A stretch of DNA of 64,000 nucleotides from Burkholderiaceae bacterium (GTDB lineage Bacteria; Pseudomonadota; Gammaproteobacteria; Burkholderiales; Burkholderiaceae_E): the NCBI GenBank assembly GCA_024711155.1, contig JANJTK010000197.1, positions 4,739-68,738 of the forward strand, written 5' to 3'. The notes under the pieces are model-generated. The model was given only the letters and a program-made list of their open reading frames with translations, searched no databases and was not told the origin of the DNA. Shown piece by piece: positions 15,746-53,652 of the stretch (positions are counted from its first letter, which is position 1; each line of letters begins with the position of its first letter). The position numbers and the translations under genes are program-made.

Positions 15746-15800
15746 CGCCGGTGACCGCCGGCCCGGACTACCCGATCGAGCCCGCAAGGATGAGCGCGCC

Positions 15801-18152: not shown

Positions 18153-18196
18153 TCGCACCGGACGCCGACGACGCTCACCGACGGAGACCTGCTCGC

Positions 18197-20494: not shown

Positions 20495-20495
20495 C

Positions 20496-22069: not shown

Positions 22070-22082
22070 GCGGTCCACCGAC

Positions 22083-23036: not shown

Positions 23037-23061
23037 CGCAGCGACGCGCGAAGATCATCGA

Positions 23062-25765: not shown

Positions 25766-25790
25766 CCGGATCTCCGTGCCGCGGCCTCAG

Positions 25791-26703: not shown

Positions 26704-26966
26704 TGTTCGCATCCTCCCGAAGACCGCGGCGCCGCCGACGGGCCGGCCCGGGCGGTCGCTGCTGCATCGCCGCAAACGTGCGGAACAGGCTCCGATTCTA
26801 GCCCGCTCGGCATCCTGCCCCGACTCATTCCAGAATCTCGTTCCTTTTTTGACTTCGGTCAATGACGCGTCGCGCCGGCAGGGAATAGCGTGAGGCACAC
26901 AACAAGACCACGCACTGTGAGCGCCCCACTGCGCCGCGGCCGAGTCGCGAATCGGAGACCCGCATC

Positions 26967-27539: not shown

Positions 27540-27556
27540 CTGCGAAGGAATCGGGC

Positions 27557-31286: not shown

Positions 31287-31393
31287 CGGGTGCAGGACTT
31301 CGGCGTAAGGATCGTGCGCATCGCATCGACAGCGGCGTCATCCGCGGCGGAGCGAAGAAGCACGCAACAGCAACGATCACCAGGAGACAACCC

Positions 31394-32599: not shown

Positions 32600-32621
32600 G
32601 CCGCACCGGACGCGACACGCC

Positions 32622-33521: not shown

Positions 33522-33522
33522 C

Positions 33523-34467: not shown

Positions 34468-35201
34468 TGAGCGCGTTGCTGTCGATCAAGGGCCTGGGCA
34501 AGCGCTTCGGAGGGCTCACGGCGCTCGAAGACGTCTCGTTCGAGGTCGATGCGGGCCGAATCGTCGGCATCATGGGCGCCAACGGGGCGGGCAAGACGAC
34601 GATGTTCAGCCTGATCGCCGGCAACGTGCGCCCGAGCATGGGCGACATTCGATTCCGCGGTGATTCACTGGTTGGGCGGCGGCCCGACCAGATCTGCCGG
34701 ATGGGCATCGCGCGCACGTTCCAGATCGTCAAGCCGTTTCCGGCGCTTTCGGTACTCGGGAACCTTCGCACCGCAGGGATGTTCGGGAAGGCGCAGCACC
34801 GCAGCGCCGCTCAGGCCGACGAAGCGTCGATGCAGGTGCTGCGCGATCTCGGCCTCGACGACGTCGCCGACCGGCCAGCATCGACGCTCACGCTGGCAGG
34901 CCAGAAGCGGCTCGAAGTGGCGCGCGCCATCGCAACGGGGGCAGAACTCATCCTGCTCGACGAGGTCATGGCGGGACTCACGCCGGTCGAGGTTGCCGCG
35001 ATGCTGGACACCTTGCGACGGGTGCAGGCCGAGCGAGGACTCACGCTCCTCGTGATCGAGCATGTCATGCGCGCGTTGATGGACCTGTGCAGCCACCTGA
35101 TCGTGCTTCACCACGGAAGGCTCATCGCCGAGGGGGACCCGCAGAGCATCGGGCGCAACGAGAAGGTGCTGTCGGTTTACTTCGGGGTGTCGAGTGAGTG
35201 A
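34467..35201 (+). CDS. ABC transporter ATP-binding protein (LivG-like)
   Basis: ATG 34467 (TAATG overlap) lies in ORF 33642..35201. Walker A is GANGAGKTT and Walker B is LILLDEV. Confidence 0.85.
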   Translation: MSALLSIKGLGKRFGGLTALEDVSFEVDAGRIVGIMGANGAGKTTMFSLIAGNVRPSMGDIRFRGDSLVGRRPDQICRMGIARTFQIVKPFPALSVLGNLRTAGMFGKAQHRSAAQADEASMQVLRDLGLDDVADRPASTLTLAGQKRLEVARAIATGAELILLDEVMAGLTPVEVAAMLDTLRRVQAERGLTLLVIEHVMRALMDLCSHLIVLHHGRLIAEGDPQSIGRNEKVLSVYFGVSSE

Positions 35202-35913
35202 CGCGTCCGTGCTGGAGATCGACGACCTCGTCGCCGGCTATGGCGCCACCATGGTGATCCACGGGCTGTCGCTGCGGGTCGCTGCGCGCGGCGTCACGGT
35301 GATGCTCGGCGCCAACGGCGCCGGCAAGACCACGCTGATGAAGACGCTCGCCGGCCTCGTCGCGCCGGTTCGCGGCCGCCTTCGCCTGATGGGCGAGGAC
35401 ATCACCCGCGTCAGCAGCGACCGCCGCGTCAGGGCCGGCATGGTGCTGGTGCCCGAGGGCAGGATGGTGTTTCCCAGCCTGAGCGTGCGCGAGAACCTGC
35501 GCCTTGGGGCCATCAATGCCCGCGCGCTGCCCGAATGGCGTCGTACCCTCGACCACGTCTACCACGTCTTTCCACGCCTGCTCGAACGCGAACGGCAGCA
35601 GGCGGTCACGCTGTCGGGTGGCGAACAGCAGATGCTCGCGATCGGCCGCGGCCTGATGGCCAAGCCGACGCTGATGTTGCTCGACGAGCCGTCGCTGGGA
35701 CTCGCGCCGGTGATGTCGGTCCAGATCTTCGACCTGGTCCGACGAATGTCCTCGGAAGGCCTGACCCTGCTGCTCGCCGAGCAGGACGTCCACAAGTCGC
35801 TCGCCGTGGCCACGCAGGCCTACGTGGTGGAGAACGGCCGCATCACTGCCGAAGGGCCCGCCGAGTCGATTGCGGGCGACGCCCGCATCCGGCAGGCCTA
35901 TCTGGGGCTCTGA
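35194..35913 (+). CDS. ABC transporter ATP-binding protein (LivF-like)
   Basis: ORF 35194..35913. Motifs GANGAGKTT, LSGGEQQML and LLDEPSLGLAP are present. Confidence 0.85.
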   Translation: MSDASVLEIDDLVAGYGATMVIHGLSLRVAARGVTVMLGANGAGKTTLMKTLAGLVAPVRGRLRLMGEDITRVSSDRRVRAGMVLVPEGRMVFPSLSVRENLRLGAINARALPEWRRTLDHVYHVFPRLLERERQQAVTLSGGEQQMLAIGRGLMAKPTLMLLDEPSLGLAPVMSVQIFDLVRRMSSEGLTLLLAEQDVHKSLAVATQAYVVENGRITAEGPAESIAGDARIRQAYLGL

Positions 35914-35921: not shown

Positions 35922-35982
35922 CCCCGGACTCGCGTCTCCCCGGCTCGCGTCTCCCCGGCTCGCGTTTCCCCGGCTCGCGTTT
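35922..35982. repeat. tandem repeat, 4 copies of a 15-nt unit CCCCGGCTCGCGTCT (first copy 16 nt)
   Basis: Read directly as ccccggactcgcgtct / ccccggctcgcgtct / ccccggctcgcgttt / ccccggctcgcgttt. It lies between the convergent stops of the LivF-like gene (35913) and ubiX (35997). Confidence 0.85.
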
Positions 35983-35996: not shown

Positions 35997-36572
35997 TCAG
36001 CCGGGAGGGGCCGGTTCCTTCCAGCGCTTCATCAGCGAGTGGCAAATGCCGAACTGGTCGAGCGCCTTGCCGACCGTGTGGTTGACGATGTCGTCGAGGG
36101 TCTTCGGCCGGTTGTAGAACGCCGGCATCGGAGGCATCATCACCGCCCCGTAACGGGCGGCTCGCGTCATCAGCTCCAGGTGGCCCAGGTGAAGCGGCGC
36201 CTCCCGAACGACGAGAACGAGCGGGCGTCGCTCCTTCAGGCAGACGTCGGCCGCCCGCGTCAGCAGGTTGTCGTTGTGCGAGTTGGCAATCTCGGACAGG
36301 GTCTTGATCGAGCACGGCGCCACGATCATTCCGGCCGTGAGATACGACCCGCTCGAAATCGCAGCCCCGATGTCTGCGTGCGGATGAACGACGTCCGCGA
36401 GCGCCTCGACGGCTGACGCCTTCCAGTCCGTCTCGTCGGCGATCGTGCGGCGCGCCGAGGGCGACATCACCAGATGCGTTTCGACGTCAGGAACGTTGCT
36501 GAGCGCCTCCAGCGCCCGGATGCCGTAGATGGCACCCGACGCGCCGGAAATCCCGATGATCAGCCGCTTCAT
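35997..36572 (-). CDS. ubiX: UbiX-family flavin prenyltransferase (prFMN synthase)
   Basis: From ORF 35997..36578, trimmed to ATG 36572 (GAGGAG 5 nt upstream). Motifs GISGASGAIYG, MIVAPCSIKTL and LVVREAPL are present. Confidence 0.88.
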   Translation of the reverse strand: MKRLIIGISGASGAIYGIRALEALSNVPDVETHLVMSPSARRTIADETDWKASAVEALADVVHPHADIGAAISSGSYLTAGMIVAPCSIKTLSEIANSHNDNLLTRAADVCLKERRPLVLVVREAPLHLGHLELMTRAARYGAVMMPPMPAFYNRPKTLDDIVNHTVGKALDQFGICHSLMKRWKEPAPPG

Positions 36573-36608
36573 TGCCACTCCTCGATGATCGCCGTTCGCG
36601 CCTGCGCC

Positions 36609-38156
36609 CTATCGCGCCGTCGCGTGCCCGTCGCGAAGCGCCTTCTTGTCCACCTTGCCCACGGTGGTCCGCGGAATCGCATCGACGAATTCGACGGCCG
36701 CCGGCACCTTGTACCGGGCCAGGTTCGCACGGCAGTGCTCGAGCACGTCCTCGGCATCGAGTTTCGCACCGGCGCGACGAACCACGTAGGCCCGGATCAC
36801 CTCGCCACGGTAAGGATCGGGCACGCCGACCGCGGCCGCCTCGGCGATCCCGGGATGCGCGTGAAGCACCTCGTCGACTTCCCGCGGGTAGACGTTGTAG
36901 CCGCCGACGATGGCCATGTCCTTCTTGCGATCGCGGATGAACAGGTTGCCGTCGGGGTCGAGTTCGCCCATGTCGCCCGTGTAGAGCCAGCCGTCGCGCA
37001 AGGCCTCGGCGGTCTCCTGCGGTCGGTTCCGGTAGCCGGCCATCACCTGCGGCCCCCGCGCCCGGACCTCGCCGATGCTCCCCACCGGCAGCACGGTGGT
37101 CCCGTTCTCGACGTCGACGATCTGGATCTCGGTTCCCGGAAGCGCGGGCCCCGACGATCCAGGCTCGAGCGCAGTACCCTCGCGAACGTAGGTGAGGACC
37201 GGCCCCGCCTCGGTCTGCCCGAAGCCCTCCAGGATCGGCGTCCCGGTCCGCTCGTACCAGCGCTTCATCGTCTCCTCAGGCAACGGAGCCGACCCGGAGT
37301 AACAGGTCCTCAGGCTCGAGAAGTCCGCTTGCGCGAAGCCCTCGAAACCCATCAGGCCGATGAAGATCGTCGGACCGGCTGGAAGCCGGGTGATCCGCTC
37401 CCTGCGGATCACGTCGAGGAGCCAGTCGGGGCGGTACCTGGGCATGATGACCAGCTTGCCTCGGCAATAGCAGGCCAGATGCAGGCACATCGCCACCGCA
37501 AAGACGTGGAACAACGGCATCACGCACACGATGTTCTCGTCGCCGGGTCGCGTCGGCAGGGCCGCTTCGCGCTGGCTCACGTTCACCGCCATCTGGCCGT
37601 GCGTGATGTTGACGCCCTTCGGAAGACCGGTGGTTCCGCCCGTGTACTGCAGCGTCGCGAGATCCCCCGGGCCCGGGAGCGGCTCGGGCAATCCCGCGCC
37701 AGGGTCGTCTCGCCAGCCGTCCAGAAGGCGCCCCCCTTCCCCCAGCCGGATCGAGTGCGGAACGCCGAGCGCCGCCAGCAGCGGTTCGACCGTCGCAGCG
37801 CTCTCGCCGTCGTACAGCAGCACCGCCGGCTCGGCGTCGCGGATGATGTGCGTCAGTTCCCGAGCGGTGTAGATCGGGTTGATCGGTGTGGCCTGCGCGC
37901 CGGCAGCGTGCGCGGCGAACATGGCCACCGCCATCTCGAGGGAGTTTCCGCACACCAGCGCAACGCGCGACCCTCGCGCACCGAGCGAGACGAGTTCGCT
38001 GGCGAAGCCCCCGACGCAGCGGAGGTATTCCGCATACGTCAGGGACCGCTCGCCGCACACCAGCGCCACCGCATCGGGCGACTGCGTGGCGGCATCCGAC
38101 AGCATGTGCACCACCGTCGGATGCACGCGCGGCAAGCCCGAAAGGTCCGGCATCAT
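36609..38156 (-). CDS. AMP-forming acyl/aryl-CoA ligase (ANL superfamily)
   Basis: From ORF 36609..38492, trimmed to ATG 38156 (AAGAGGG 6 nt upstream; 515 aa). Motifs LQYTGGTTGLPKGV, GFGQTEAG, YTGDMG and RTTVGKVDKK are present. Confidence 0.85.
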   Translation of the reverse strand: MMPDLSGLPRVHPTVVHMLSDAATQSPDAVALVCGERSLTYAEYLRCVGGFASELVSLGARGSRVALVCGNSLEMAVAMFAAHAAGAQATPINPIYTARELTHIIRDAEPAVLLYDGESAATVEPLLAALGVPHSIRLGEGGRLLDGWRDDPGAGLPEPLPGPGDLATLQYTGGTTGLPKGVNITHGQMAVNVSQREAALPTRPGDENIVCVMPLFHVFAVAMCLHLACYCRGKLVIMPRYRPDWLLDVIRRERITRLPAGPTIFIGLMGFEGFAQADFSSLRTCYSGSAPLPEETMKRWYERTGTPILEGFGQTEAGPVLTYVREGTALEPGSSGPALPGTEIQIVDVENGTTVLPVGSIGEVRARGPQVMAGYRNRPQETAEALRDGWLYTGDMGELDPDGNLFIRDRKKDMAIVGGYNVYPREVDEVLHAHPGIAEAAAVGVPDPYRGEVIRAYVVRRAGAKLDAEDVLEHCRANLARYKVPAAVEFVDAIPRTTVGKVDKKALRDGHATAR

Positions 38157-38239
38157 CGGCAACCCTCTTCTTCCCCTGCTGCCCGGTGCGGCAGCTCGAA
38201 CTGCGACGGGGCCGGATCGCCGGCCCCGGGTTGCCGCTC

Positions 38240-40186
38240 CTACCAGCCGGCGGGCCGCGAGATCGTGATGTGCGGCTTGACCTCTTCCTCCGTCGGCACC
38301 CATCCCGGAAGGATGTGCTTGCCCAGCGGGTGCAGCTGGTAGGGCGCCGTGCCCTCCGCGAACCCGGTCTTGCGCATGTTGGCGCGCAAGCTCGCGGTGG
38401 CTTTCTCGTCGATCCGGAAGTCGCAGGCCTCGGCGTCGACCTCGTCGATCACGACCCCGTAGAAGTCGCGCGCTGCGGCGACGCTGAGCCACTCGTCCTT
38501 GACGTCTTCGAGCACCAGCTCGGGTTCGCGGTCCAGCGGATTGCCGAAGCCGCCGCCGCCGCTGGACGAATAATAGATCTTGTCGCCCTTCTTCAACTCG
38601 ACGCCGGTGGCGTACATTCCGGCGTTGAACTCGCGGTCGGTGCCCTTGTTGACGATCAGCATGCTGCCGCCGCCGTTGAGGCCGCCGGAGAGGCCGAAGG
38701 GGCCGAACTTCTCACGGTCGCCGTGAATCGTCATGGTGACGTCGGTCTGCACTTCCAGCTCGCGCACCAGCGCAAAGCCGCCGCGCCGCATGCCGTGGCC
38801 GCACGAATCGACGCGCGCCTCGTAGGCCGTGTACACGACCGGGAACCAGCGCTCCTCGAGCTCCTGCGGAATCGTCCTCGCGTTGCAGAAGCGCATGAAG
38901 ATCAGCGACTTGCCGTCCTTGAACGTGCGCGCATTCTCGCCGCCCACGGCGTAGGTGTACTGGACGAACTCCTTCTTCGTGCGCGGGTTGAAGCCGCCCA
39001 TGCAGAGGTTGGTCAGGCTGACCGCCGCCGGATAGACGCGCCACGGCTGCACCTTGCCCAACGGCCCTCCGAGGCACGCAATGGTCACGGCCTCGATCTT
39101 GTCGAAAGCGCCCGAGCAGTATCCGGTCGTGGGCGCAGGGAAGTCGACGTCGACGCAGGTGCCCCGCTTCGAGATGATCTCGAGGTTGCGGACGATCCCG
39201 TGGTTGAGCGGAAACAGCGACGGGAAGCAGATCATGAAGCCGAGATAGGTGCCGCCGATCAGCGTGGCCCGCGTGCCGCCCCAGGAGGCCCGCGGCTGCT
39301 TGTCCGAGTCGGTCCAGTCGAAGGTGAGCTTGGTGCCCTTCTTCGTCATCACGCAGTGCACGCGGATCGGCGGCTTGCCGGGCGACATCACGTCCTGGTC
39401 GCCGAAGTCCTCGAATTGCCAGGTGCCGTCGGGCAGCGCGGCCAGCTCGGCCAGCATCATGCGCTCGGTGTAGTTGAACTGTTCCTCGTAGGCCTGGAAC
39501 AGCGTCTCGACCCCGTAGCGCTCGCACAGCTCGACCACCCGCCGGTCGATCAGGCTCGAGGCCTCGAACTGCGCCTGCAGGTCGGCCCGGCGCTCGATCG
39601 AGCCGCGGATGTTGATGGCGATCAGGCTGAACAGCTCCTCGTCGAGCTTGTTCTCCTTGAACAACCGGATCGGCGGGATGCGGATGCCCTCCGCATAGCA
39701 GCTGGTCGCCTCGGGGTTGAAAGTGCCGGGCAGCGGCCCTCCCATGTCGGCCCAGTGGATCACCGTGCACGCGAACGCGACGATCTGGCCGCGGAAGAAG
39801 ATCGGCCGGATCATCCGCGTGTCGTTGACGTGCGAACCGGTGCGATACGGGTCGCTGAACAGGAAGGTGTCCCCTGGCTTCATGCTCTCGCGGGAGATGT
39901 CCTTCAGCAGTTCCTGCACCGACGGCTCGAACGACGCATAGTGCGCCGCCGCATCGGTATGTCCGTGCGCGACCAGCCGCGCATCGGGCGTGAGGATCGC
40001 GTTGGAGCGGTCACGCCCCATCCCGATCACCGGATGGTAGGCGATGCGCTCGATGGTCGTCGACGCCTCGTAGCAGGCGGCAACGAACGCGTTGCGCATC
40101 ACCTCGAAGGTGATCAGGTCCATGCCGAGGCCCGCATCCTCGATCTTCTCTTTGACGGCTGTGGCTGTGCTCGATTTCTGCGACAT
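38240..40186 (-). CDS. hydantoinase B/oxoprolinase family subunit (HyuB-like)
   Basis: From ORF 38240..40573, trimmed to ATG 40186 (GAAGGA 7 nt upstream, 13 nt after the hyuA stop; 648 aa). The product reads DLITFEVMRNAFVAACYEASTTIERIAYHPVI, with SSSGGGGFGNPLDREPELVLEDV. Confidence 0.85.
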   Translation of the reverse strand: MSQKSSTATAVKEKIEDAGLGMDLITFEVMRNAFVAACYEASTTIERIAYHPVIGMGRDRSNAILTPDARLVAHGHTDAAAHYASFEPSVQELLKDISRESMKPGDTFLFSDPYRTGSHVNDTRMIRPIFFRGQIVAFACTVIHWADMGGPLPGTFNPEATSCYAEGIRIPPIRLFKENKLDEELFSLIAINIRGSIERRADLQAQFEASSLIDRRVVELCERYGVETLFQAYEEQFNYTERMMLAELAALPDGTWQFEDFGDQDVMSPGKPPIRVHCVMTKKGTKLTFDWTDSDKQPRASWGGTRATLIGGTYLGFMICFPSLFPLNHGIVRNLEIISKRGTCVDVDFPAPTTGYCSGAFDKIEAVTIACLGGPLGKVQPWRVYPAAVSLTNLCMGGFNPRTKKEFVQYTYAVGGENARTFKDGKSLIFMRFCNARTIPQELEERWFPVVYTAYEARVDSCGHGMRRGGFALVRELEVQTDVTMTIHGDREKFGPFGLSGGLNGGGSMLIVNKGTDREFNAGMYATGVELKKGDKIYYSSSGGGGFGNPLDREPELVLEDVKDEWLSVAAARDFYGVVIDEVDAEACDFRIDEKATASLRANMRKTGFAEGTAPYQLHPLGKHILPGWVPTEEEVKPHITISRPAGW

Positions 40187-40199
40187 GATTTCGTCCTTC

Positions 40200-42257
40200 T
40201 CAGCGCTCGACCTGGATGATGAGATTGCCATAGTTGTCGACCCGGCAGTGGGTCCGCGGCGGCATGACCACCGTCGTGTCGGCCTGCTCCACGATCGCGG
40301 GGCCGTCGAAGGTGGCTCCAGCCGGCAGCAACTCGCGCTGATAGATGTCCGTCTGCACGAATCCCGCGTCCTGGAACCAGACCATCCGGTTGCACTTGTG
40401 CGCATCGCGCAAGGTGCTGGTGCGTTCGATCGGCTGCAGGTCGGGCTTCTCGATCCGGCCCCTGACCACGACCCGCAGGTTGACGATCTCCACCGGCGCG
40501 TAGCCGGGCGGCAGCGTATAGCCGTAGGCCTCGCGCATCGCCCCCATGAAGGTGGTGGTGATTCCGTCGACATTGTCGATGCGGCCCGGCTCGACGGCCA
40601 CCGTGAAGAACCTGCTCTGGCTGAAGTACTTCACGTCGGCCAGCCGCTCCACGACGATGTCCGTTTCGGCGATGCCCTCGCTCTTCAGGATGCCGACCGC
40701 GCGCTTGACCAGCGCGTCGAACTCGTCGTTGAGCCAGCCGAAGTCGATCTCTTCCTCGACCTTGTGGATCGGCGTGGTGAATTCCTGCTTCATGTCGACG
40801 CGGATCGCGCCGAACGCCGAGGCGTAGCCGGGCAGCGGCGGCACCACGACGGTCGGGGAGCCGATCTCGCGCGCCAGGTCGCACGCATAGAGCGAGCCTC
40901 CGCCGCCATACGGAACGATCGCGAAGTCGCGCGGATCCCACCCACGCGCGACCGTCTGGATGCGCATCGCCATCATCAGGTTCGCCATGGCCACGCGGTA
41001 CATGTTGGCGGCCGATTCCTCGGCGGTCCAGCCGTAGTGCGATCCGATCTTCTCCGAGAGCGCCTTGCGCGACAGATTGCCGTCGACCTTCAGCTCGCCG
41101 CCGAGGTAGTACTCGGGATCGATCCGGCCGAGCACGATCTGGCAGTCAGTGTTGGTGGGCTCCTCGCCCCCCTGCCCGTAGCACGCCGGCCCCGGGACCG
41201 CGCCCATGCTCTGCGGCCCGACGTTCAGGATCTTGCCCTTGTCGACCCAGCCGATCGAACCTCCGCCCGAACCGATGTACACGGTGTCGACCGAGGGCAG
41301 GCAGCACGGCACGTTCCAGAGGATCTTCCACTCGTGCGTGATCGCCGGCGAACCGCGATAGATCATCGAGACGTTGTTGGTCGTGCCGCCCGTCTCGAAC
41401 GCGATCACGTTCTCGAAGCCGGCCAGCGACCCGATGTAGCCTGCCATCCCCACCGCGCCCGACACCGGCGAGGAATGGAAGGTCTTGGCGGGCATCTTCG
41501 CCGCCTCGTCCATGCCGATCACGCCGCCGCCCGAGGTGGTCACGAGGATCGGGCCGTTGAAGTTCCAGTCCTTCTTGAGCCGGCTCGACAGGCCGCTCAG
41601 GTAGTTCTTGAGGATCGGCGCGATGTACGCGTTCAGGACGGTCGTGCAGGTGCGCTCGAACTCGAGCATCTGCGGCAGCACCTCGTGCGACAGCGTGACG
41701 TCGACGCCCGGAAGCTCCCGCTGCAGGATCTCGCGCGTGCGCACTTCATGCGCGGGATTCATGAACGAGTCCATGTAGACGACCGCGACGGACTCGACAC
41801 CGCGCTTGCGGCACTTGCGCGCGGCCGTAACCACGTCTTCCTCGCTCAGCGGCGTGAGGATCTCCCCGTACGGGCTGACGCGCTCGCGCACGGTCAGCAC
41901 GTCGCGGCGCGGGATGATCAGCTCGGGCGGATCCCAGTCCAGCTCAAACGCGGAGATGCGTTCCGCGCGCCCGCCGCCGAGCACGTCCCGGAAGCCGACC
42001 GTCGTGATGAGCGCCGTCTTCACCCCCTTGCGCTCGAGGATCGCGTTGGTCGACACCGTGGCGCCGTGCCGGAACGATGCAACGTCTTCGCCCCGCAGGC
42101 CGGCCCGCTTGAGCCCGTTGATCACGCCGTCGAAGAAGGTCGGGGGAGTCGAGGGCACCTTGCCGATGCGCTGCTCGCCCGTCTCTAGATTCACGCCGAT
42201 CACGTCGGTGAAGGTTCCACCGATGTCCGTGCCGACGACCCATTTCCCCTTGCCCAT
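40200..42257 (-). CDS. hydantoinase A/oxoprolinase family subunit (HyuA-like, ATP-binding actin-like fold)
   Basis: From ORF 40200..42299, trimmed to ATG 42257 (GGAGG 4-5 nt upstream; 685 aa). Motifs VGTDIGGTFTDVI, VSTNAILERKG and FETGGTT are present. Confidence 0.85.
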   Translation of the reverse strand: MGKGKWVVGTDIGGTFTDVIGVNLETGEQRIGKVPSTPPTFFDGVINGLKRAGLRGEDVASFRHGATVSTNAILERKGVKTALITTVGFRDVLGGGRAERISAFELDWDPPELIIPRRDVLTVRERVSPYGEILTPLSEEDVVTAARKCRKRGVESVAVVYMDSFMNPAHEVRTREILQRELPGVDVTLSHEVLPQMLEFERTCTTVLNAYIAPILKNYLSGLSSRLKKDWNFNGPILVTTSGGGVIGMDEAAKMPAKTFHSSPVSGAVGMAGYIGSLAGFENVIAFETGGTTNNVSMIYRGSPAITHEWKILWNVPCCLPSVDTVYIGSGGGSIGWVDKGKILNVGPQSMGAVPGPACYGQGGEEPTNTDCQIVLGRIDPEYYLGGELKVDGNLSRKALSEKIGSHYGWTAEESAANMYRVAMANLMMAMRIQTVARGWDPRDFAIVPYGGGGSLYACDLAREIGSPTVVVPPLPGYASAFGAIRVDMKQEFTTPIHKVEEEIDFGWLNDEFDALVKRAVGILKSEGIAETDIVVERLADVKYFSQSRFFTVAVEPGRIDNVDGITTTFMGAMREAYGYTLPPGYAPVEIVNLRVVVRGRIEKPDLQPIERTSTLRDAHKCNRMVWFQDAGFVQTDIYQRELLPAGATFDGPAIVEQADTTVVMPPRTHCRVDNYGNLIIQVER

Positions 42258-42414
42258 TTCACCTCCGTTTCGTCGCGCGCCAACGCGGTCGCGCGACATC
42301 GTGTTCGGGATTCGCGAAGACGATGCCGACCCCCGTCTGCATCGCTCTTTAAGGAACGGTATTCATTTTTCGGCTGTCAGTCAAGAGCCGCGCCCGGCAT
42401 CGCTCGTCCTCCGC

Positions 42415-43206
42415 TCAGACGGTCTCGAGGCTGCGTCCGGGCATGTAGTGGAGGACCGCACGTTCCGCCGCCACAACCGCGGCGTAAGCAAGGATTCCGA
42501 TCACCGTGAGCACCACGATCGTGACGAACACCATCGCCGTGTTCGCCTGCCCCTCGCCGAACACCAGCAGGTACCCGAGCCCCGAGTTGCCGCCGACCAT
42601 CTCGCCGACCAGGACACCGATGACGGCCAGCGTCGAGGCGATTCGCAGGCCCGAGAACAGCGGCGGCATCGACGCCGGGAACTCGAGTTTCCAGAACAAT
42701 TGCAGGCGCGTCGCGCTGAACGAACGAACGAGGTTGATCATGTCGCGATCGAGCGTGTGCATTGCCCCGAGGACGTTCACCATCACCGGGAAGAACACGA
42801 TCAGCACCGCGACCAGGATCTTCGGGTAGATCGTGTAGCCGAACCACATGACGAACAGCGGCGCGAACGCGACCTTCGGGGCGATCTGCATCGCAAGGAT
42901 GTAGGGCGACAGCACCATCTCGGCTGTGGGCGAGACTCCCAGGCCATAGCCGACGATCATGCCGAGAAGGCTGCCGAGGATGAACCCGATCACCACCTCC
43001 GCCAGCGTCACTCCCGTGTGGAAGAGCAGCTTCTCGACCCGGACCATGCGCCCGGCCTCGACGATCACGTCGGAGAGCGGCGGGATGATGAATTCGGGGA
43101 TGCCCGTCAACCCGGGCAGCCATTGCCATGCGGCGGCGAAGGCCGCCAGCAGGGCAAGGCTGCCCGACAGGGCAGACCGCCCCGAGCCTCGAGGCGCGGC
43201 GGCCAT
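42415..43206 (-). CDS. ABC transporter permease (NitT/TauT nitrate/sulfonate/taurine-type)
   Basis: ORF 42415..43206. It is a BPD-type inner-membrane component (LVRSFSATRLQLFWKLEFPASMP). Confidence 0.8.
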   Translation of the reverse strand: MAAAPRGSGRSALSGSLALLAAFAAAWQWLPGLTGIPEFIIPPLSDVIVEAGRMVRVEKLLFHTGVTLAEVVIGFILGSLLGMIVGYGLGVSPTAEMVLSPYILAMQIAPKVAFAPLFVMWFGYTIYPKILVAVLIVFFPVMVNVLGAMHTLDRDMINLVRSFSATRLQLFWKLEFPASMPPLFSGLRIASTLAVIGVLVGEMVGGNSGLGYLLVFGEGQANTAMVFVTIVVLTVIGILAYAAVVAAERAVLHYMPGRSLETV

Positions 43207-43209
43207 GGC

Positions 43210-44199
43210 CTAGCGGACGAACTGGTTGGTGTAGAGGTCGGCGATCGGCGTCTTCGTGCGCACGATCCCCTGCGACACGTAGAAGTCCTGCAGCTTGACG
43301 AGCCGCGCCTCGTCCATTTCCCCGAGCACTGCCTGTCCCGGATAGACGCGCTCGGCGTAATAGCCGAGGATCTTCGCCATCGCAGCCTCCTTGCCGGCGT
43401 GCTGGGGCACCGCAGCAACATACGCCTGCGCCGCCGCCTTCGGATCCTTCATCACTTCCGCCACCGCCCTGAGGGTCGCGCGCACGAAGCCGCGCACCGC
43501 CTGCGGCTTCTTCGCGATCGTGGCGTCGGATGCGATGATCGCCTGCGCCATGCCGGGGAAGTACTGATCGACCGAAATCCAGTTGAGCCGGATTCCCGCA
43601 TCCTCGACCGCGGCGCCCCACTCCGGAACGGCCGCTGCCGCGACGGCATCCCCGCTGATCATCAGCTTCGAGACTCCGGCGGGCCCGACGGCCTGGGCAT
43701 TGACGTCGTTCTTGCCCAGGTTGAAGGCCGCCAGGGCGCCGAGAAGCGCGTAATACGTCGTGTCCTGGTAGGCCATGACCGCAATGGTCTTGCCCTTCAG
43801 GTCAGCCGGGCTGCGGATTCCGGAATCCGCCCTCGAGATCAGTTGCGTCAGCGCGCGCCCCCCGAGCACCGCCACCGTCTTCACCGGCACGCCGTTGGGT
43901 CGCACGATCACCGAGGTGTCGCCGATGCCGCCGCCCATGTCGGCGTTGCCGGCGCCCACCTGCTTGGCGACGTCGGCGCCCCCCTTGCCGACGACGAACT
44001 CGACCTCGACGCCCTCCGCCGCGTAGTACCCCTTCGCCTGCGCGAGCATGAACGGCGCAAAGGCGGGCAGCACGGCCGGCGCCGGGAACAGGTAGGTGAT
44101 CTTCTCCGCCGCGCTGGCAGCTCCTGCCGGCAGGAGCGCAGCCGCGAGACCCAGGGCCAGCGTGAGCTGGCGCAATGCAGCAAACGTCTTCCTCAACAT
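43210..44199 (-). CDS. ABC transporter substrate-binding protein (NMT1/THI5-like, NitT/TauT family)
   Basis: From ORF 43210..44634, trimmed to ATG 44199 (GAGGAG 8 nt upstream; 329 aa). The signal peptide ends PAGAASAAE. Confidence 0.75.
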   Translation of the reverse strand: MLRKTFAALRQLTLALGLAAALLPAGAASAAEKITYLFPAPAVLPAFAPFMLAQAKGYYAAEGVEVEFVVGKGGADVAKQVGAGNADMGGGIGDTSVIVRPNGVPVKTVAVLGGRALTQLISRADSGIRSPADLKGKTIAVMAYQDTTYYALLGALAAFNLGKNDVNAQAVGPAGVSKLMISGDAVAAAAVPEWGAAVEDAGIRLNWISVDQYFPGMAQAIIASDATIAKKPQAVRGFVRATLRAVAEVMKDPKAAAQAYVAAVPQHAGKEAAMAKILGYYAERVYPGQAVLGEMDEARLVKLQDFYVSQGIVRTKTPIADLYTNQFVR

Positions 44200-44225
44200 G
44201 ACCTGTCTCCTCGTGTCAGTGGCGA

Positions 44226-45020
44226 TCAGTGATCGCCTTCGTTGATGTGCAACAGTGCCATCAGTTCGCGAACGTACTCGGTCATCCGGGTGCTCTGGCG
44301 GCGGGCGAACGGATTCGCTCGATCCGGAATGTCGACCACGATTTCCCGCACGATGGTGCCGGGCCGCTGGCTCATCACCAGGACGCGATCCGACAGCGCC
44401 ACCGCCTCGGCGAGATCGTGAGTGATGAACAGGGCGGTCCTGCGCTCCTGCGCAAACGCGCGGCTGAAATCGCTCTGGAGAACCATCTTGGTCTGCGCAT
44501 CGACTGCCGAGAACGGCTCGTCGAGCAGAATCACGTCCGGATCGACGGCAAGCGTGCGCGCGAGCGCCGCGCGCTGGCGCATGCCACCGGAAAGCTGGTG
44601 CGGGTAGTGATGACCGAACTTGCCCAGGCGGCATCGTTCGAGGTGGTCGGCGGCCCGGGCCCGGCGAGTCTCGCGGGGTTCTCCGCGGATCTCGAGGCCG
44701 AGTTCGATGTTCCCGAGGATCGTCCGCCAGGGCATCAGCAGGTCCTTCTGGAGCATGAAGGCCACCTGGCGATTCGGTCCTTCCACGCGATGCCCGTCGA
44801 CGAAGACCTCGCCGGCGTTGGGCCGGTCGAGACCGGCGGCCATCGTCAGCAGCGTGCTCTTGCCGCAGCCGCTGGGACCGATCAGCGAAACGACTTCGCC
44901 GTCACCGATGGCAAGACTGACATCGGTGACGGCGACCACCGGCTCGGCCACGCCGCCCCCCCGGCCCTTCACGTTGAAGCACCGGGTCACCTTCCGGAAT
45001 TCCAGGCGCGGCGCGGCCAT
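44226..45020 (-). CDS. ABC transporter ATP-binding protein (NitT/TauT family)
   Basis: From ORF 44226..45074, trimmed to ATG 45020 (GGGAGG upstream, 20 nt after the UbiD stop). Motifs GPSGCGKST, LSGGMRQR and ILLDEPFSAVD are present. Confidence 0.85.
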   Translation of the reverse strand: MAAPRLEFRKVTRCFNVKGRGGGVAEPVVAVTDVSLAIGDGEVVSLIGPSGCGKSTLLTMAAGLDRPNAGEVFVDGHRVEGPNRQVAFMLQKDLLMPWRTILGNIELGLEIRGEPRETRRARAADHLERCRLGKFGHHYPHQLSGGMRQRAALARTLAVDPDVILLDEPFSAVDAQTKMVLQSDFSRAFAQERRTALFITHDLAEAVALSDRVLVMSQRPGTIVREIVVDIPDRANPFARRQSTRMTEYVRELMALLHINEGDH

Positions 45021-45040
45021 GGCCTCCCCCGGGGACCGAG

Positions 45041-46453
45041 TCAGCGCTTGCGCCAGGTGAGCTTGCTGCCCCATTTCGCAAGCGTCCGATCGACGATCTG
45101 GGGATCATCGACGGTCCTCGGCGCCTTCTCGCCCCAGAACTCGTACTCCTCGGTGCACATCGTGGCGTCGATGCCGAGTCCGGTCTGCCAGCCCTTCTCG
45201 CGCAGGCTGACCGCCGGGTCGAGCCACTGCCCGGCGCGTCGCGGGAGGATGTTGACGTCGCGGTCCGCCCGCACCCGCGTCGACAATGCCCAGTGCACGC
45301 TGTCGTAGTCCCAGATGTCGATGTCCTTGTCGACGACGATGACGTGCTTGTAGCGCGCATAGGTCGCGCCCCAGACGGCATCCATGACCTGCTGCGCATG
45401 CCCCGGAAAGAGCTTGTCGATCTTGACGATGGCCTCGTAGGTGACGTCGCAGCGCAGGTCGAGCACCCCGGGAACCAGGGCCTTGATGGTCTGGTACGCA
45501 ACCGCCTGCGAGGATTTCCCGACCGCGAATGCGCTCTCCGACGGATACCACTGTTCGCGCGCCCCGAGATAGATCGGGTTCTTGCGCATCGTCACGCGGG
45601 TCACTTCGAACACCGGATTCGAGCGGGCCTCGCCGTAATAGCCGGTGTACTCGCCGAATCCGCCTTCGATCTCGCGATGCGCGGGCCGAACGAAACCCTC
45701 GAAGACGAACTCGCAGGTCGCCGGAACGAAGATATCGACGCTCTGGCACTTGACCATGTCGAGCGGTTCGCCGCGCAACCCCCCGGCGATCTCGAATTCA
45801 TCGACGTTGGGAGGCGTCCGCGTGCTCGCGACGATGAACACGGTCGGGTCGTAACCGGTGACGACGGCCATCGGCATCGGTTCGCCGTGGCGCTCGTACT
45901 GGATGTAGTGCTGGCGACCGTGGGTGTATTCCGGGGCGCCCCATCCGAGCTTGTTCTTGCCGAGGGTGCCCATCCGGTAGATGCCCGCGTTGTGCACGCC
46001 CGTTTCCCGGTCCTTGGTGATCGACACGCTGAGGGTTCCGGGGAAGCGCCCACCATCGTACTGATGCCAGATCGTGTTGCAGATCCGGTCCAGGTCGATC
46101 TCGTCACCCTCGAGCACGACCTCCTGGCAGGGCGCCGACGACACGATCCGGGGCTTGACCGGAACCGCCGTGCGGCGACACCACTCGTCGTTGAAGGTGG
46201 ACCAATGCTCCATGCCGAGGGCCGCGAGGAAGCGCCGGTCGGTGCCGAGGAGATTGGTGACCATCGGGTAGTCGCACCCCTTGATCCGGTCGAACTGGAT
46301 CGCCGGCCCGTGCTCCTGCAAGCCGATCCGGGTGATGCCGTTGATCTCCCAGTCGGGATCCACCTCGTCGCCAATCCGGTGCAAGTCGCCCTTCTTGTCG
46401 AGGTACTCGAGAAACTCCCGCATGTCGTACCAGTTCGCCTTCGCCTTGCTCAT
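45041..46453 (-). CDS. UbiD-family prFMN-dependent (de)carboxylase
   Basis: ORF 45041..46453 (470 aa). The product reads MREFLEYLDKKGDLHRIGDEVDPDWEI. Motifs HNAGIYRM, EFEIAGGLRGEPLDMVKC and EGGFGEYTGYYG (catalytic Glu region) are present. Confidence 0.88.
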   Translation of the reverse strand: MSKAKANWYDMREFLEYLDKKGDLHRIGDEVDPDWEINGITRIGLQEHGPAIQFDRIKGCDYPMVTNLLGTDRRFLAALGMEHWSTFNDEWCRRTAVPVKPRIVSSAPCQEVVLEGDEIDLDRICNTIWHQYDGGRFPGTLSVSITKDRETGVHNAGIYRMGTLGKNKLGWGAPEYTHGRQHYIQYERHGEPMPMAVVTGYDPTVFIVASTRTPPNVDEFEIAGGLRGEPLDMVKCQSVDIFVPATCEFVFEGFVRPAHREIEGGFGEYTGYYGEARSNPVFEVTRVTMRKNPIYLGAREQWYPSESAFAVGKSSQAVAYQTIKALVPGVLDLRCDVTYEAIVKIDKLFPGHAQQVMDAVWGATYARYKHVIVVDKDIDIWDYDSVHWALSTRVRADRDVNILPRRAGQWLDPAVSLREKGWQTGLGIDATMCTEEYEFWGEKAPRTVDDPQIVDRTLAKWGSKLTWRKR

Positions 46454-46913
46454 GGTCGTTGCCGCTCCTGTGTTCGGTGTCGCCTACGCCGTCGTTGCCG
46501 TGCACTTCGTGATCGCAATCGCCTCGCCGAATCGCCACGCCAGAGTCCGAACTGCACGAACCTGCCGGCGCCGTCAGGATGCGCGCCAGCATTCCGGGAA
46601 GTGGGGTCGGTGGTTCGTCAGAAACCGGGACGGGACAGCCTTCCCCGAATCCGGTGCGTCTCCTCAAAAACGTATCGTGTTCTTTTATGGATCCAATTTA
46701 GTCCCAATCCGGCCGGGCTGTCAATTGGCCTGGACATCGGGGGTTTCCCGCGTCCGGATCGGCCCCGGGCGCGGCCGCCGGGACGCGATTCCGGCACGCC
46801 GGGCAGGTGGCGCGAGGATCGACTTGCTATCATCCGCGCGCATTACCAGCGCATACGCACGCGAACGCCTCCGCAACGAGGTGGCCGCGAGCCGCAGCCC
46901 CCGGCAAGCATCC

Positions 46914-47585
46914 ATGGCACAGATCAAGAAGAAGGCAGTTCGTGAAGCGATCCTCGCCGCGGCGAAGGATCTCTTCACGGCGAAGGGCTACTCGGGCACG
47001 ACACTGTCGGACATCGCGAGCGAATCCCGCGTCACGATGTCCAACATCTACAACTACTTTCCGTCGAAGCTCGGGATTCTCTACGCGCTCTACGAGCCCT
47101 GGCTCGATCACCGGCTCGACCTGCTGGGCGCCGAAGTGGCGCGCATCAGGGATCCCCGCAGGCGTCTGCGCAAGATCCTCGTCAGCGTTCTGCGGGACAT
47201 CCCGAGCGCCAACAACTGCTTCGCCAACAACATCCTTCAGGCGCTGTCGACCTTGTCCGTCGACGAACCCTACTCGCGCGAGTTGCTCCTGCGCTCGGAG
47301 CGCAAGGTTGCGTCGATGATTCGCGAAGCGCTGTCCGACTGCCCCGACATGGACGTTCCCGAGCAGGCGCTGGCGCATCTGCTGTTCATGGCGTTCGACG
47401 GCTTCGCGGTCAACTTCAGGGTCACCGGCATCACGAAGCAGGCCGACGACGTGGTGGACATGCTCTGCGACCTGATGATCGGCAAGTCGACGTCACCTGC
47501 CGTGTCGCAGGCGACGAAGGCGACCCCGACCGCGAAGCGCGCGAGCCCGGCGGCGGCCGGCCGGCGCAAGGCAGCCGCCGCCTGA
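46914..47585 (+). CDS. TetR family transcriptional regulator
   Basis: ATG 46914 lies in ORF 46281..47585. The HTH reads GTTLSDIASESRVTMSNIYNYFPSK. The gene is divergent from the UbiD operon. Confidence 0.85.
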   Translation: MAQIKKKAVREAILAAAKDLFTAKGYSGTTLSDIASESRVTMSNIYNYFPSKLGILYALYEPWLDHRLDLLGAEVARIRDPRRRLRKILVSVLRDIPSANNCFANNILQALSTLSVDEPYSRELLLRSERKVASMIREALSDCPDMDVPEQALAHLLFMAFDGFAVNFRVTGITKQADDVVDMLCDLMIGKSTSPAVSQATKATPTAKRASPAAAGRRKAAAA

Positions 47586-47602: not shown

Positions 47603-48532
47603 TCACCGGGCATGTGTGCGCGCGCGCTCCCGCCCGAACAGCTTCAGCACCCGTTCCCGCAGCCAGCCCTGCGCCGCGTCGGCATCACTCGCGGCGTGCC
47701 AGACCATTCGCACCTCGTACGGCGGCATCTTCAGCGGCAGCGGCCACATCGCCAGGCGCCGGGAGCGCTGGCAAGCCATGCGCGCGAACATGCTCGGCAC
47801 GATCGCCGCCAGCCGGCGCTCGACCACCAGATCCGGCACCGACGCGTAGTGGCGCGCGCGCACCGCGACGCGATCCGCCAGCCCGTGACGCTCCAGCGCG
47901 TCGGCAACGCCGCGATGGTAGGTCGCGGCCGGCGATGCCAGCACCAGGCGCGCGTCGCCGAACCCCCTGCGCGTGCGCCAGGCCGGCGGCGCGTCCTGGC
48001 TCCCCAGCACGACGTAGTGCTCGCTGAAGAGCAGCTTCGATCGCACGCCTGCCTGCCCGGGGTCCATCATGCCGATCGCGAGCCCGACTTCGCGCCGCGC
48101 GAGCGCGTCGGCGACGCGCTCGGCCGGCACGCCGACGTTGACGAAGCGCGTGTGCGGCGCCTCGCGCAGCACGGCTTCGACGATGCGCGGCAGGAAGACG
48201 GCCTCGCCGAGGTCCGACAGCGACAGCCGCCACTCGACGACGCTCTCGGACGGGTCGAAGACCTCGGCACCGGTCAGCGCCGCCTCGAGCGCTTCGAGGT
48301 GACGCGCCGCTGCCGGCACGATGCGCTCGGCGAGCGCCGTCGGCGTCAGTCCGCCCGCGCCGCGGACGAACAGCGGATCGCCGAACGCCTCGCGCAGCCG
48401 CGCCAGCGCGTTGCTGGTCGCGGGCTGGCTGAGCGCGAGCCGGCGCCCGGCGTCGGTGACCGAGCGAGCGCGGTCGATCTCCAGCAGCACGCGCAGCAGG
48501 TTCAGGTCGAGGCGGTCGAAGCGCAGCGTCAT
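47603..48532 (-). CDS. LysR family transcriptional regulator
   Basis: ORF 47603..48532. The HTH reads RSVTDAGRRLALSQPATSNALARLRE. The gene is divergent from the iorAB-like genes. Confidence 0.85.
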   Translation of the reverse strand: MTLRFDRLDLNLLRVLLEIDRARSVTDAGRRLALSQPATSNALARLREAFGDPLFVRGAGGLTPTALAERIVPAAARHLEALEAALTGAEVFDPSESVVEWRLSLSDLGEAVFLPRIVEAVLREAPHTRFVNVGVPAERVADALARREVGLAIGMMDPGQAGVRSKLLFSEHYVVLGSQDAPPAWRTRRGFGDARLVLASPAATYHRGVADALERHGLADRVAVRARHYASVPDLVVERRLAAIVPSMFARMACQRSRRLAMWPLPLKMPPYEVRMVWHAASDADAAQGWLRERVLKLFGRERARTHAR

Positions 48533-48686
48533 TGATTTCCTGAATGTCGTTGATTGCGTGAATCCATTTGACGGATATCGAGCCTACGACTAAGGTCCGA
48601 TCCGATCAAGCCCCGGAGCGCTGCCGAGGCCGCGCCCTAGCGCTGCCCCGCAACGAACCCGCAACCTCCTGTCGCGCAGTCGGTCC

Positions 48687-50834: not shown

Positions 50835-50835
50835 C

Positions 50836-52452: not shown

Positions 52453-52509
52453 CCCGGGAGCCCGGCCCGGACGAGAATCCAGAACACTGTTCGAACGAGG
52501 AGACCATCG

Positions 52510-53547: not shown

Positions 53548-53652
53548 ACCGCGGCGCCCGCCGCCGGACGAGCGCGCCGGGCAGCACGCCCGGCGCCGCT
53601 TCGTTTCCGCGCGGCGCCTGCCGGCGCCCGCCCACCCCCACGGCGCAACGCG

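Follow-up and report, generated by a model that had tools for sequence, protein, structure and literature searches.

Which metabolic route would require, in one operon, a (de)carboxylase dependent on prenylated flavin mononucleotide (prFMN), an ATP-dependent enzyme of the hydantoinase/oxoprolinase family, a coenzyme A (CoA) ligase, and an importer? This question is raised by eight co-directional minus-strand genes at positions 35997-46453 of a 64,000-nucleotide (nt) stretch of DNA from a Burkholderiaceae bacterium (contig JANJTK010000197.1), hereafter called the window. Open reading frame (ORF) coordinates, translations, and Pfam/NCBIfam profile searches bore out the genes, gaps, and family assignments listed in an initial annotation of this DNA; in the order from ubiD to ubiX, the gaps measure exactly 20, 26, 3, 157, 13, 83, and 36 nt. 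The eight genes make up half of a gene island that spans about 20 kb (approximately 25.9-47.6 kb of the window), and we give a probability of about 0.45 to the reading that this island encodes an oxygen-independent route, built on the pattern of the furan-degrading Hmf pathway, for the catabolism of a heteroaromatic carboxylic acid with nitrogen in its ring.

The minus-strand operon begins with a UbiD-family prFMN-dependent (de)carboxylase of 470 amino acids (aa) (45041-46453; identified by Pfam and TIGR00148), followed by an ATP-binding cassette (ABC) importer of the NitT/TauT type that consists of an ATPase (44226-45020; ABC_tran), an NMT1/SsuA-type periplasmic binding protein (43210-44199; PF09084 NMT1, 133 bits), and a permease (42415-43206; BPD_transp_1). 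Next come HyuA, the ATP-binding subunit of a hydantoinase/oxoprolinase-family enzyme (685 aa; 40200-42257; three Pfam domains), and its catalytic subunit HyuB (648 aa; 38240-40186; Hydantoinase_B, 419 bits), then an AMP-forming acyl/aryl-CoA ligase of the FadD/4CL/MatB type (515 aa; 36609-38156; AMP-binding and AMP-binding_C), and finally the flavin prenyltransferase UbiX, a prFMN synthase (191 aa; 35997-36572; NF004685). The window has a G+C content of 66-75% and its raw ORF lists are full of spurious frames; the real genes were picked out by third-position G+C. The ORF list contains neither an acetone-carboxylase gamma gene, in agreement with the initial annotation, nor a small ORF within the gaps of the eight-gene cluster. 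The coding strand of the cluster contains no terminator-like site; the only matches in the region, two weak ones, are on the plus strand inside hyuB.

The functional unit is larger than these eight genes; it reaches at least from 26967 to 47585, and the limits first drawn around the operon were too narrow. Directly downstream of the ubiD operon and convergent with it lies a tightly packed plus-strand operon of nine genes (26967-35913), which opens with a CoxG/SRPBCC accessory protein of a molybdenum enzyme (26967-27539; PF06240) and continues with the enzyme itself, i.e., a flavin adenine dinucleotide (FAD)-binding medium subunit of the CoxM type (283 aa; 27557-28408; FAD_binding_5 and CO_deh_flav_C), a [2Fe-2S] small subunit of the CoxS type (28405-28914; Fer2_2 and Fer2), and the molybdopterin large subunit CoxL (791 aa; 28911-31286; Ald_Xan_dh_C, MoCoBD_1, and MoCoBD_2). 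The domains of its large, FAD, and 2Fe-2S subunits place CoxMSL in the xanthine dehydrogenase family. The last five genes (31394-35913) encode a Liv-type ABC importer of the HAAT family with a binding protein, two permeases, and two ATPases. Pfam identified Peripla_BP_6 and ABC_tran domains, and the permeases were assigned through homology and synteny; these genes overlap or almost touch, and relatives keep them next to CoxL or HyuAB. An XdhC-type molybdenum-cofactor insertion chaperone on the minus strand (24971-25786; XdhC_CoxI and XdhC_C) is a likely accessory.

That these genes are associated beyond chance is indicated by their recurrence on many independent contigs of several phyla. The association was found, in reordered form, in 126 related loci from Alpha-, Beta-, and Deltaproteobacteria, Acidobacteria, and Bacillota, and HyuA, HyuB, and UbiD keep 62-96% identity across them. 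A scan of one genome per species gave 46 UbiD-centred loci, and the reciprocal scan of metagenome contigs gave 80 HyuB-centred ones. The combination singled out by the initial annotation is therefore not unique to this genome; since the scans were pattern-based and many contigs are short, the counts of absences are soft. The UbiD-centred loci belong almost exclusively to metagenome-assembled genomes, with Rhodospirillales, Burkholderiales, Xanthobacteraceae, Desulfobacterales, other Deltaproteobacteria, Acidobacteria, Dethiobacter, other Bacillota, Dehalococcoidia, and Gaiellales as hosts. The only isolates among them are Enterocloster and [Clostridium] asparagiforme, whose UbiD is 57% identical, and the collections searched held no isolate with the full, HyuAB-linked cluster. 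Over 100 cluster representatives, all of them metagenomic, match HyuB at 62-96% identity; its mean column identity is 80% across phyla, and the UbiD and HyuAB clades alike occur in metagenomes from groundwater, wastewater, sediment, and ocean.

The closest relative, a wastewater contig (locus L138) with a 96% identical HyuB, has exactly the gene order of the window. HyuA-HyuB, located by tblastn at 65-90% identity, adjoin UbiD in many UbiD loci, and CoxG-CoxMSL is still more frequent and constitutes the most conserved neighbour of the window-type UbiD. Among 20 well-flanked UbiD-centred loci (at least 7 kb on each side, UbiD at least 64% identical), CoxL, counted from at least 40% identity, is present in 13, HyuB in 12, a CoA ligase in 12, and either CoxL or HyuB in 17. 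Of the HyuB-centred metagenome loci, 10 are flanked by 7 kb or more in both directions; all of these carry a ligase (10/10), often together with CoxL (7/10) and UbiD (6/10). Direct adjacencies in the related loci number 29 for HyuB and the ligase, 22 for UbiD and CoxG or CoxM, 18 for HyuB and UbiD, and 11 for CoxL and HyuA, and gene fusions link CoxG with UbiD in a marine group (P0057) and CoxG with the FAD subunit CoxM in locus L137. Alpha- and Betaproteobacteria possess the FadD/4CL-type ligase, Deltaproteobacteria, Acidobacteria, and Dethiobacter a PaaK-type ligase; the enzyme has thus been swapped for a non-homologous type, and the function is retained though the gene is not.

Gene order is reshuffled between lineages, yet the gene set remains together. 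UbiD and UbiX do not seem to be the centre of this set. Locus L137, on a closed contig of 5.25 Mb, has the molybdenum enzyme, HyuAB, and the ligase and no UbiD within 10 kb, and locus L057 (HyuB 89% identical) resembles the window minus UbiD, UbiX, and the NitT importer; its 22 kb contain HyuAB, the ligase, and only Cox paralogues of low identity (31-45%). The NitT importer was detected in 18 of 74 loci with UbiD and in none of 52 without it, a contingency that is affected by the ascertainment of the loci; homologues of its ATPase adjoin UbiD in relatives, as do carboxylate importers of the tripartite ATP-independent periplasmic (TRAP) type in anaerobes. UbiD, UbiX, and a carboxylate importer consequently behave as an add-on, and the molybdenum enzyme, HyuAB, and the ligase appear to form the core of the system, with UbiD, UbiX, and the NitT importer attached as an optional feeder.

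The window UbiD carries the domains UbiD_N, UbiD, and UbiD_C and reaches 337 bits with TIGR00148, above the cut-off of 245, which assigns it to the UbiD family; it lies below the cut-off of every function-named equivalog (VdcC, UbiD proper, PpcA/B, and SCO4490). Its relatives are 54-93% identical, after which identity falls to about 41%, and by sequence the protein belongs to a distinct uncharacterised clade. The best solved relative is HmfF of the furan pathway (6H6V, PtHmfF; 235 bits, 35.7% identity); phthaloyl-CoA decarboxylase, HudA, AroY, and Fdc1 are much weaker matches. An identity as phthaloyl- or isophthaloyl-CoA decarboxylase was rejected on account of scores of only 108 bits to the phthaloyl-CoA decarboxylase structures versus 235 to HmfF. 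The active-site motifs quoted in the initial annotation are intact: N155, R160, E219, and E268 are invariant and E263 nearly invariant in 12 members of the clade, and all five residues are identical in the alignment to HmfF. The residue recognising the heteroatom is a histidine in HmfF (H296/H297) and Asn318 in HudA (PMC7976604). This furan-recognising histidine aligns with Ser307 of the window UbiD, which is invariant in the clade. At two further positions, HmfF R304 and R331, the window UbiD has S315 and T338; the roles of the two arginines are presumed ones and were not used as evidence. Orthology with HmfF was discarded in view of the exchanged specificity residue and the identities of 35.7% to PtHmfF and 30% to the HmfF of Caballeronia. 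UbiX, in turn, is a flavin prenyltransferase according to NF004685 (273 bits, cut-off 188) and TIGR00421 (234 bits, cut-off 109). An exact-sequence look-up matched only short Logan contigs. Nucleotide and protein searches of plasmids yielded no close relative, UbiD matches there being at most 35% identical; the two that were inspected (Ruegeria and Paracoccus) are ordinary ubiquinone UbiD/UbiX/UbiUVT loci and irrelevant here.

HyuA and HyuB belong to their family with scores well above the cut-offs for Hydant_A_N, Hydantoinase_A, and Hydant_A_C and for Hydantoinase_B, respectively. Hydrolases of this family use ATP to open stable lactams. The solved structures closest to HyuA are N-methylhydantoinase (424 bits), ApcC of acetophenone carboxylase (314 bits), and caprolactamase (307 bits), with the beta subunit of acetone carboxylase at 197 bits; for HyuB, the order is N-methylhydantoinase (217 bits), caprolactamase B (200 bits), ApcD (131 bits), and acetone carboxylase alpha (58 bits over a short stretch). 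Judged by these similarities, HyuAB sits on the hydrolase side of its family and not on the carboxylase side. Neither named enzyme was recovered as such: the caprolactamase CapAB equivalogs score 463 (CapA) and 253 bits against cut-offs of 1000, and the acetone/acetophenone carboxylase models score 298 (ApcC), 197 (ApcA), and 134 bits (ApcD) against cut-offs of 1250-1500, with no ORF for a small subunit. 5-Oxoprolinase, N-methylhydantoinase, and caprolactamase share with the window enzyme the two-subunit HyuA/HyuB composition without a gamma subunit and are its best sequence matches; the known representatives are not known to be clustered with UbiD, a molybdenum hydroxylase, and a CoA ligase, and their known substrates are saturated lactams. 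Among solved structures, the ligase is most similar to malonyl-CoA synthetase (286 bits), followed by feruloyl-CoA synthetase (271 bits).

CoxL is nearest to HcrA, the alpha subunit of 4-hydroxybenzoyl-CoA reductase (HCR), with 369 bits in the PDB and 560 bits in NCBIfam, the latter below the cut-off of 995. CoxM matches HcrB with 102 bits in two stretches (cut-off 405) and has no compact four-cysteine cluster in its 283 aa, and the 4Fe-4S insertion of the HcrB type thus seems to be absent from its sequence. The short CoxM without such a cluster and the scores of both subunits led to the rejection of HCR itself as the identity of the enzyme. Furoyl-CoA dehydrogenase HmfABC was likewise rejected, CoxL being only 32% identical to the HmfA of Caballeronia and an enoyl-CoA-hydratase-like gene (HmfE) being absent.

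Among the closest known systems are those of the Hmf pathway. A plasmid search with the HmfF sequence recovered a complete hmfFGABCDEH cluster on a plasmid of Caballeronia sp. Lep1P3 (L140) and, on pHTA426 of Geobacillus kaustophilus, an hmf-like cluster in which CoxG is separate. Relative to the Caballeronia proteins, identities amount to 30% for UbiD (HmfF), 58% for UbiX (HmfG), 32% for CoxL (HmfA), 32% for CoxM (HmfB), 44% for CoxS (HmfC), and 32% for the ligase (HmfD), and CoxG is 30% identical to the C-terminal domain of HmfA (residues 848-1007). The island thus holds homologues of six Hmf components, and the sequence comparison reveals an architecture that is parallel part for part without any pair being orthologous. 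Like the Hmf systems of Cupriavidus basilensis HMF14 and Caballeronia, the island contains UbiD together with UbiX, an AMP-forming CoA ligase, and a xanthine-dehydrogenase-family enzyme of three subunits to which a CoxG/SRPBCC domain belongs. It also shares with them the division into a conserved core and a variable feeder with the decarboxylase, which for Hmf clusters correspond to hmfABCDE and hmfFG, respectively (PMC3223595). It differs from them by identities of only 30-58%, the absence of the HmfE thioesterase and the HmfH oxidase, the additional HyuAB, a putative ATP-dependent hydrolase, and two ABC importers, and a host range that includes strict anaerobes.

On the Hmf model, we infer the following sequence of steps, the order of which, like the substrate, is not fixed by the data. 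A more carboxylated substrate would enter via the NitT-type importer, and UbiD, supplied with prFMN by UbiX, would remove one ring carboxyl group, acting as a feeder as HmfFG does on furan-2,5-dicarboxylate. The resulting mono-acid, which could also be imported directly by the Liv-type system, would be ligated to CoA by the AMP-forming ligase in analogy to HmfD. Enzymes of the xanthine dehydrogenase family hydroxylate carbon atoms adjoining a ring nitrogen with oxygen from water; CoxG/CoxMSL would accordingly insert a water-derived oxygen beside the ring nitrogen, like HmfABC on furoyl-CoA, and the product would tautomerise to a cyclic amide. In the furan route, the hydroxylated furoyl-CoA gives a lactone that opens readily, whereas the nitrogen analogue is a lactam, the hydrolysis of which is unfavourable, and this would explain the role of an ATP-driven HyuAB, predicted to open the stable lactam as 5-oxoprolinase opens 5-oxoproline. 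The open-chain enamine would finally shed ammonia and join central metabolism. A hydratase, acyl-CoA dehydrogenase, or thiolase is not among the conserved genes of the island, nor is any other downstream gene, and the product should hence enter central metabolism directly, which favours a five-membered ring with a 2-carboxyl group. The aerobic pyrrole-2-carboxylate route ends in 2-oxoglutarate and ammonia, and pyrrole-2-carboxylate, with pyrrole di- or tricarboxylates as feeders, is the candidate substrate that would lead to 2-oxoglutarate directly; pyridine carboxylates are possible. The scheme is supported by the proximity of CoxL to HcrA, which acts on an aryl-CoA, and by the position of HyuAB nearer to lactam and hydantoin hydrolases than to carboxylases. 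It corresponds to the first of two options in the initial annotation, a nitrogen analogue of the furoate route, and has gained from the conserved CoxG-CoxMSL beside UbiD, the CoxG-UbiD fusion, and the six Hmf homologues; its substrate, its end near 2-oxoglutarate, and its order of steps are still conjectural.

Several observations weigh against this pathway. The furan-recognising histidine of HmfF is replaced by Ser307, and the cluster lacks an HmfE-like thioesterase. The tight link between HyuB and the ligase, together with the resemblance of the latter to malonyl-CoA synthetase, points to ring opening before CoA ligation. The preference of CoxL for a CoA ester is weakly based, as ordinary xanthine dehydrogenases score 525 bits versus 560 for HcrA, and the two halves of the nicotinate dehydrogenase of Eubacterium barkeri reach 240 and 161 bits, which combined is similar to HcrA. 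Enzymes of this family may moreover be reductive dehydroxylases, e.g., HCR and the Enterocloster enzymes Ucd/Uxd (PMC12658268). Marine Rhodospirillaceae loci have UbiD, CoxG, CoxMSL, and importers and neither HyuAB nor a ligase within 10 kb, which would be a better fit to a molybdenum enzyme acting on the free acid. Deltaproteobacterial loci contain a tungsten-dependent aldehyde:ferredoxin oxidoreductase, a hint of an aldehyde intermediate that is not predicted by the five-membered-ring scheme.

Much of this would be accommodated if the same four enzymes worked in another order, without a CoA ester in the ring chemistry, an alternative that we consider unlikely but the most serious one. UbiD would decarboxylate before or after the molybdenum-dependent hydroxylation to give a neutral lactam (2-pyridone or pyrrolinone), HyuAB would open it with ATP, and the ligase would act on the open-chain acid only thereafter, e.g., from nicotinate or picolinate via the 6-hydroxy acid, 2-pyridone, and 5-aminopentadienoate/glutaconate semialdehyde to glutaconyl-CoA. 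Such an order agrees with the HyuB-ligase pair as the tightest link of all, both in adjacencies and in its constancy in the well-flanked HyuB loci, with the position of UbiD directly beside CoxG/CoxM and of CoxL beside HyuA, and with marine loci that combine UbiD and the molybdenum enzyme in the absence of a ligase. The core is flanked by importers typical of neutral nitrogen compounds, namely an NCS1 permease (L050) and an ABC importer of the sugar/purine type (L137), the aldehyde:ferredoxin oxidoreductase of the deltaproteobacterial loci fits a semialdehyde product, and malonyl-CoA synthetase, the best solved homologue of the ligase, acts on a small aliphatic diacid. The Hmf parallel, including the CoxG domain within HmfA, and HcrA as the best match of CoxL favour, on the contrary, a CoA ester as the substrate of the molybdenum enzyme, and loci devoid of UbiD would need a substrate without a carboxyl group. 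To our knowledge, the ATP-dependent hydrolysis of an aromatic pyridone is also without precedent.

The genes might, less probably again, form independent modules that travel together, HyuAB with the ligase and an importer serving a saturated lactam or hydantoin, comparable to the utilisation of caprolactam, valerolactam, or 5-oxoproline, and UbiD with the molybdenum enzyme serving an unrelated aromatic acid. Modules do occur singly, as documented by L137 and L057 without UbiD and by the marine and several anaerobe loci without HyuAB, and other catabolic units are located nearby in the window. A merely shared journey is difficult to reconcile with a co-location that has persisted through repeated rearrangement in five or more lineages of phylum or class rank, the frequency of CoxL and UbiD in the well-flanked HyuB loci, the direct contacts of HyuB with UbiD and of CoxL with HyuA, and the finding that homologues of the TetR regulator described below adjoin either hyuA or ubiD.

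The second option of the initial annotation, in which HyuAB activates an enol, phenol, or pyridone with ATP, UbiD carboxylates it, and the ligase adds CoA, has become improbable. Extended by an HCR-like enzyme that removes the hydroxyl group, it would be an analogue of the anaerobic phenol pathway with HyuAB in place of phenylphosphate synthase, and indeed the UbiD-family enzyme, UbiX, aryl-CoA ligase, HcrA-like molybdenum enzyme, and ATP-consuming activation step mirror phenol degradation. CoxL has HcrA as its best match, many hosts are anaerobes or belong to denitrifier lineages, and acetone and acetophenone carboxylases are members of the HyuAB family. Genes for PpsABC, PpcC, and PpcD are nevertheless lacking, UbiD and HyuAB often occur apart and are not obligate partners, and HyuA and HyuB are much nearer to hydrolases than to carboxylases, without a gamma or epsilon subunit. 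Signs of the HcrB-type insertion are missing from the short FAD subunit, carboxylate importers (TRAP and NitT) adjoin UbiD, and the marine loci have UbiD and neither of the ATP-using modules. Phenylphosphate carboxylase as the identity of UbiD had been rejected on the basis of scores of 188 and 162 bits for PpcA and PpcB (cut-offs 469 and 565), a single UbiD gene, and the lack of a small or haloacid dehalogenase (HAD)-type subunit in the cluster. Least probable is a divergent cluster for furan-2,5-dicarboxylate and furoate in which HyuAB plays an unrelated role, since the status of HmfF as the closest characterised UbiD relative and the six Hmf homologues are outweighed by identities of 30-36% to HmfF and 32% to HmfA (confirmed furfural degraders show at least 54% to HmfA [PMC3223595]), the clade-invariant serine in place of the histidine, the absence of HmfE and HmfH, and the tight conservation of HyuAB alongside ligase and molybdenum enzyme, although a lactone-opening route would have no use for HyuAB.

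The enzyme families of the island are all known, and it is their combination and the implied logic of ring opening that are new. A full-text search of a paper library returned no paper tying UbiD to hydantoinase-, oxoprolinase-, or caprolactamase-type enzymes, in keeping with the novelty initially claimed for a HyuAB module beside UbiD, no described pathway joining a molybdenum hydroxylase, HyuAB, and a ligase, and no characterised member of the cluster. Nicotinate dehydrogenase and quinoline 2-oxidoreductase pathways share with the proposed oxygen-independent route the water-derived hydroxylation beside the ring nitrogen, giving a lactam that needs to be opened; in known routes for nitrogen heterocycles, however, the ring is opened after reduction, by an oxygenase, or by a simple amidase, and none is known to combine prFMN-dependent decarboxylation, HyuAB, and a CoA ligase. 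The known dipicolinate (dip) cluster, which begins with an O2-dependent monooxygenase and needs no molybdenum cofactor, is a different system. A tentative extension of the proposal, less likely than not to hold, is a widespread, unrecognised O2-independent pathway for nitrogen-heteroaromatic acids, in which ATP-dependent hydrolysis of a molybdenum-generated lactam replaces oxygenase or reductive cleavage and the new UbiD clade feeds in polycarboxylated rings. Candidate substrates would be pyrrole carboxylates from hydroxyproline, melanin, and tetrapyrroles as well as pyridine carboxylates such as nicotinate, picolinate, and dipicolinate. If true, this would constitute a third strategy for opening heteroaromatic nitrogen rings beside oxygenases and ring reduction, workable with or without oxygen, give a role to a UbiD clade that is large, highly conserved, and entirely uncharacterised and to an equally conserved HyuAB clade, and have a bearing on how carbon and nitrogen in heterocycles are turned over where oxygen is absent. 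Two potential biocatalysts would also be gained, a heteroaromatic (de)carboxylase and a lactam hydrolase driven by ATP, from enzyme classes that are in demand for fixing CO2 and for the chemistry of lactams and nylon monomers. The reading of a single operon missed half of the pathway, which makes this locus a cautionary case.

Two regulators probably control the convergent operons. The divergent TetR gene noted initially was confirmed by its TetR_N domain (223 aa; 46914-47585, plus strand, divergent from ubiD), and homologues of 40-67% identity are situated beside hyuA or ubiD in relatives. An IclR-family gene (25879-26964, minus strand; HTH_IclR and IclR_C) is divergent from coxG; its limits are those of a stop-to-stop ORF, the true start lying probably further inside, and its best match is the PcaR/PobR subfamily, below the cut-off. 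The ubiD operon has a candidate promoter and operator region at 46660-46730 on the minus strand, where a single sigma-70-like promoter, TTGACA-18-TAAATT at 46724-46695, lies 240 nt upstream of ubiD. Just downstream of it, in a window otherwise rich in G+C, there is an AT-rich island, CATAAAAGAACnCnATACGTTTTTGAG / CATAAAAGAACACGATACGTTTTTGAG, which is conserved in L138 although the remaining spacer diverges and which is a candidate TetR operator; a repeat search for the operator detected no palindrome. Between the convergent stop codons of livF and ubiX, a 15-nt tandem repeat, CCCCGGCTCGCGTCT, with 3.9 copies and 95% matches (35922-35980), fills the 83-nt spacer, in which no terminator was found, its folding being no better than that of shuffled sequence. 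The NitT-type ATPase has its best NCBIfam matches among SaoA, TauB, and nitrate types, none of which it matches above the cut-off, and searches of solved structures with the binding proteins returned only weak, uninformative matches.

Some relatives of the window-type UbiD are accompanied by other proteins. In L009 (8525-9955) and also in L073 and L074, a second UbiD paralogue with 31% identity to the window UbiD is inserted between HyuB and the 80% identical UbiD, and these tandem genes recall the heteromeric subunits of phenylphosphate carboxylase. The deltaproteobacterial loci L028, L029, L047, L115, and L132 show the order HyuA, HyuB, UbiD, PaaK-type ligase, a 163-aa ferredoxin, and the tungsten aldehyde:ferredoxin oxidoreductase, followed in L028, L029, and L047 by a ThiS/MoaD-like protein; a BamB-type benzoyl-CoA reductase was rejected for this tungsten enzyme, as true aldehyde:ferredoxin oxidoreductases score 322 versus 208 bits. 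In the strict-anaerobe loci L013/L054, L019, and L022/L051, a molybdenum enzyme of the bis-molybdopterin guanine dinucleotide type (dimethyl sulfoxide reductase family) recurs near the window-type UbiD, and a membrane-anchored 4Fe-4S protein is found near UbiD in the two deltaproteobacterial loci and two others. Three different pterin-enzyme families thus partner one UbiD clade.

The loci of Enterocloster and [Clostridium] asparagiforme (L039-L041, 9992-21069) contain the 57% identical UbiD together with a major facilitator superfamily transporter, UbiX, a 135-aa protein, a NUDIX/IDI-like protein, and a protein resembling a PucR-type regulator by sequence; the 135-aa protein occupies the position of the LpdD-chaperone gene in the related Syntrophomonas locus L055. 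Their molybdenum enzyme is arranged as 2Fe-2S subunit, molybdenum subunit, and a long FAD-binding subunit (793 aa), which is the arrangement of the published urolithin dehydroxylase uxdFOC. Identity with that operon was rejected, as E. lavalensis carries the locus and ucd/uxd had been detected only in four other Enterocloster species (PMC12658268); the locus is probably a paralogue of the urolithin dehydroxylase operon.

With respect to the surroundings in the window, a separate catabolic-looking island (10034-21518) harbours an IclR regulator, a thiamine pyrophosphate enzyme, an aspartate-dehydrogenase-domain protein, an aldehyde dehydrogenase, and an FAD_binding_3 monooxygenase, as well as a second xanthine-dehydrogenase-family large subunit with an FAD subunit, for which no 2Fe-2S gene was recognised; it probably represents the adjacent molybdenum enzymes to which the initial annotation had assigned the hydroxylation. 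The cobaltochelatase subunits CobS and CobT (22050-24948) are encoded between the two molybdenum-enzyme islands. On the other side (47603-55444), a LysR gene, which adjoins TetR in the close relative L138 too, is divergent from a split IorA/IorB-like 2-oxoacid:ferredoxin oxidoreductase (48687-52452) that is followed by a TRAP importer of the DctPQM type.

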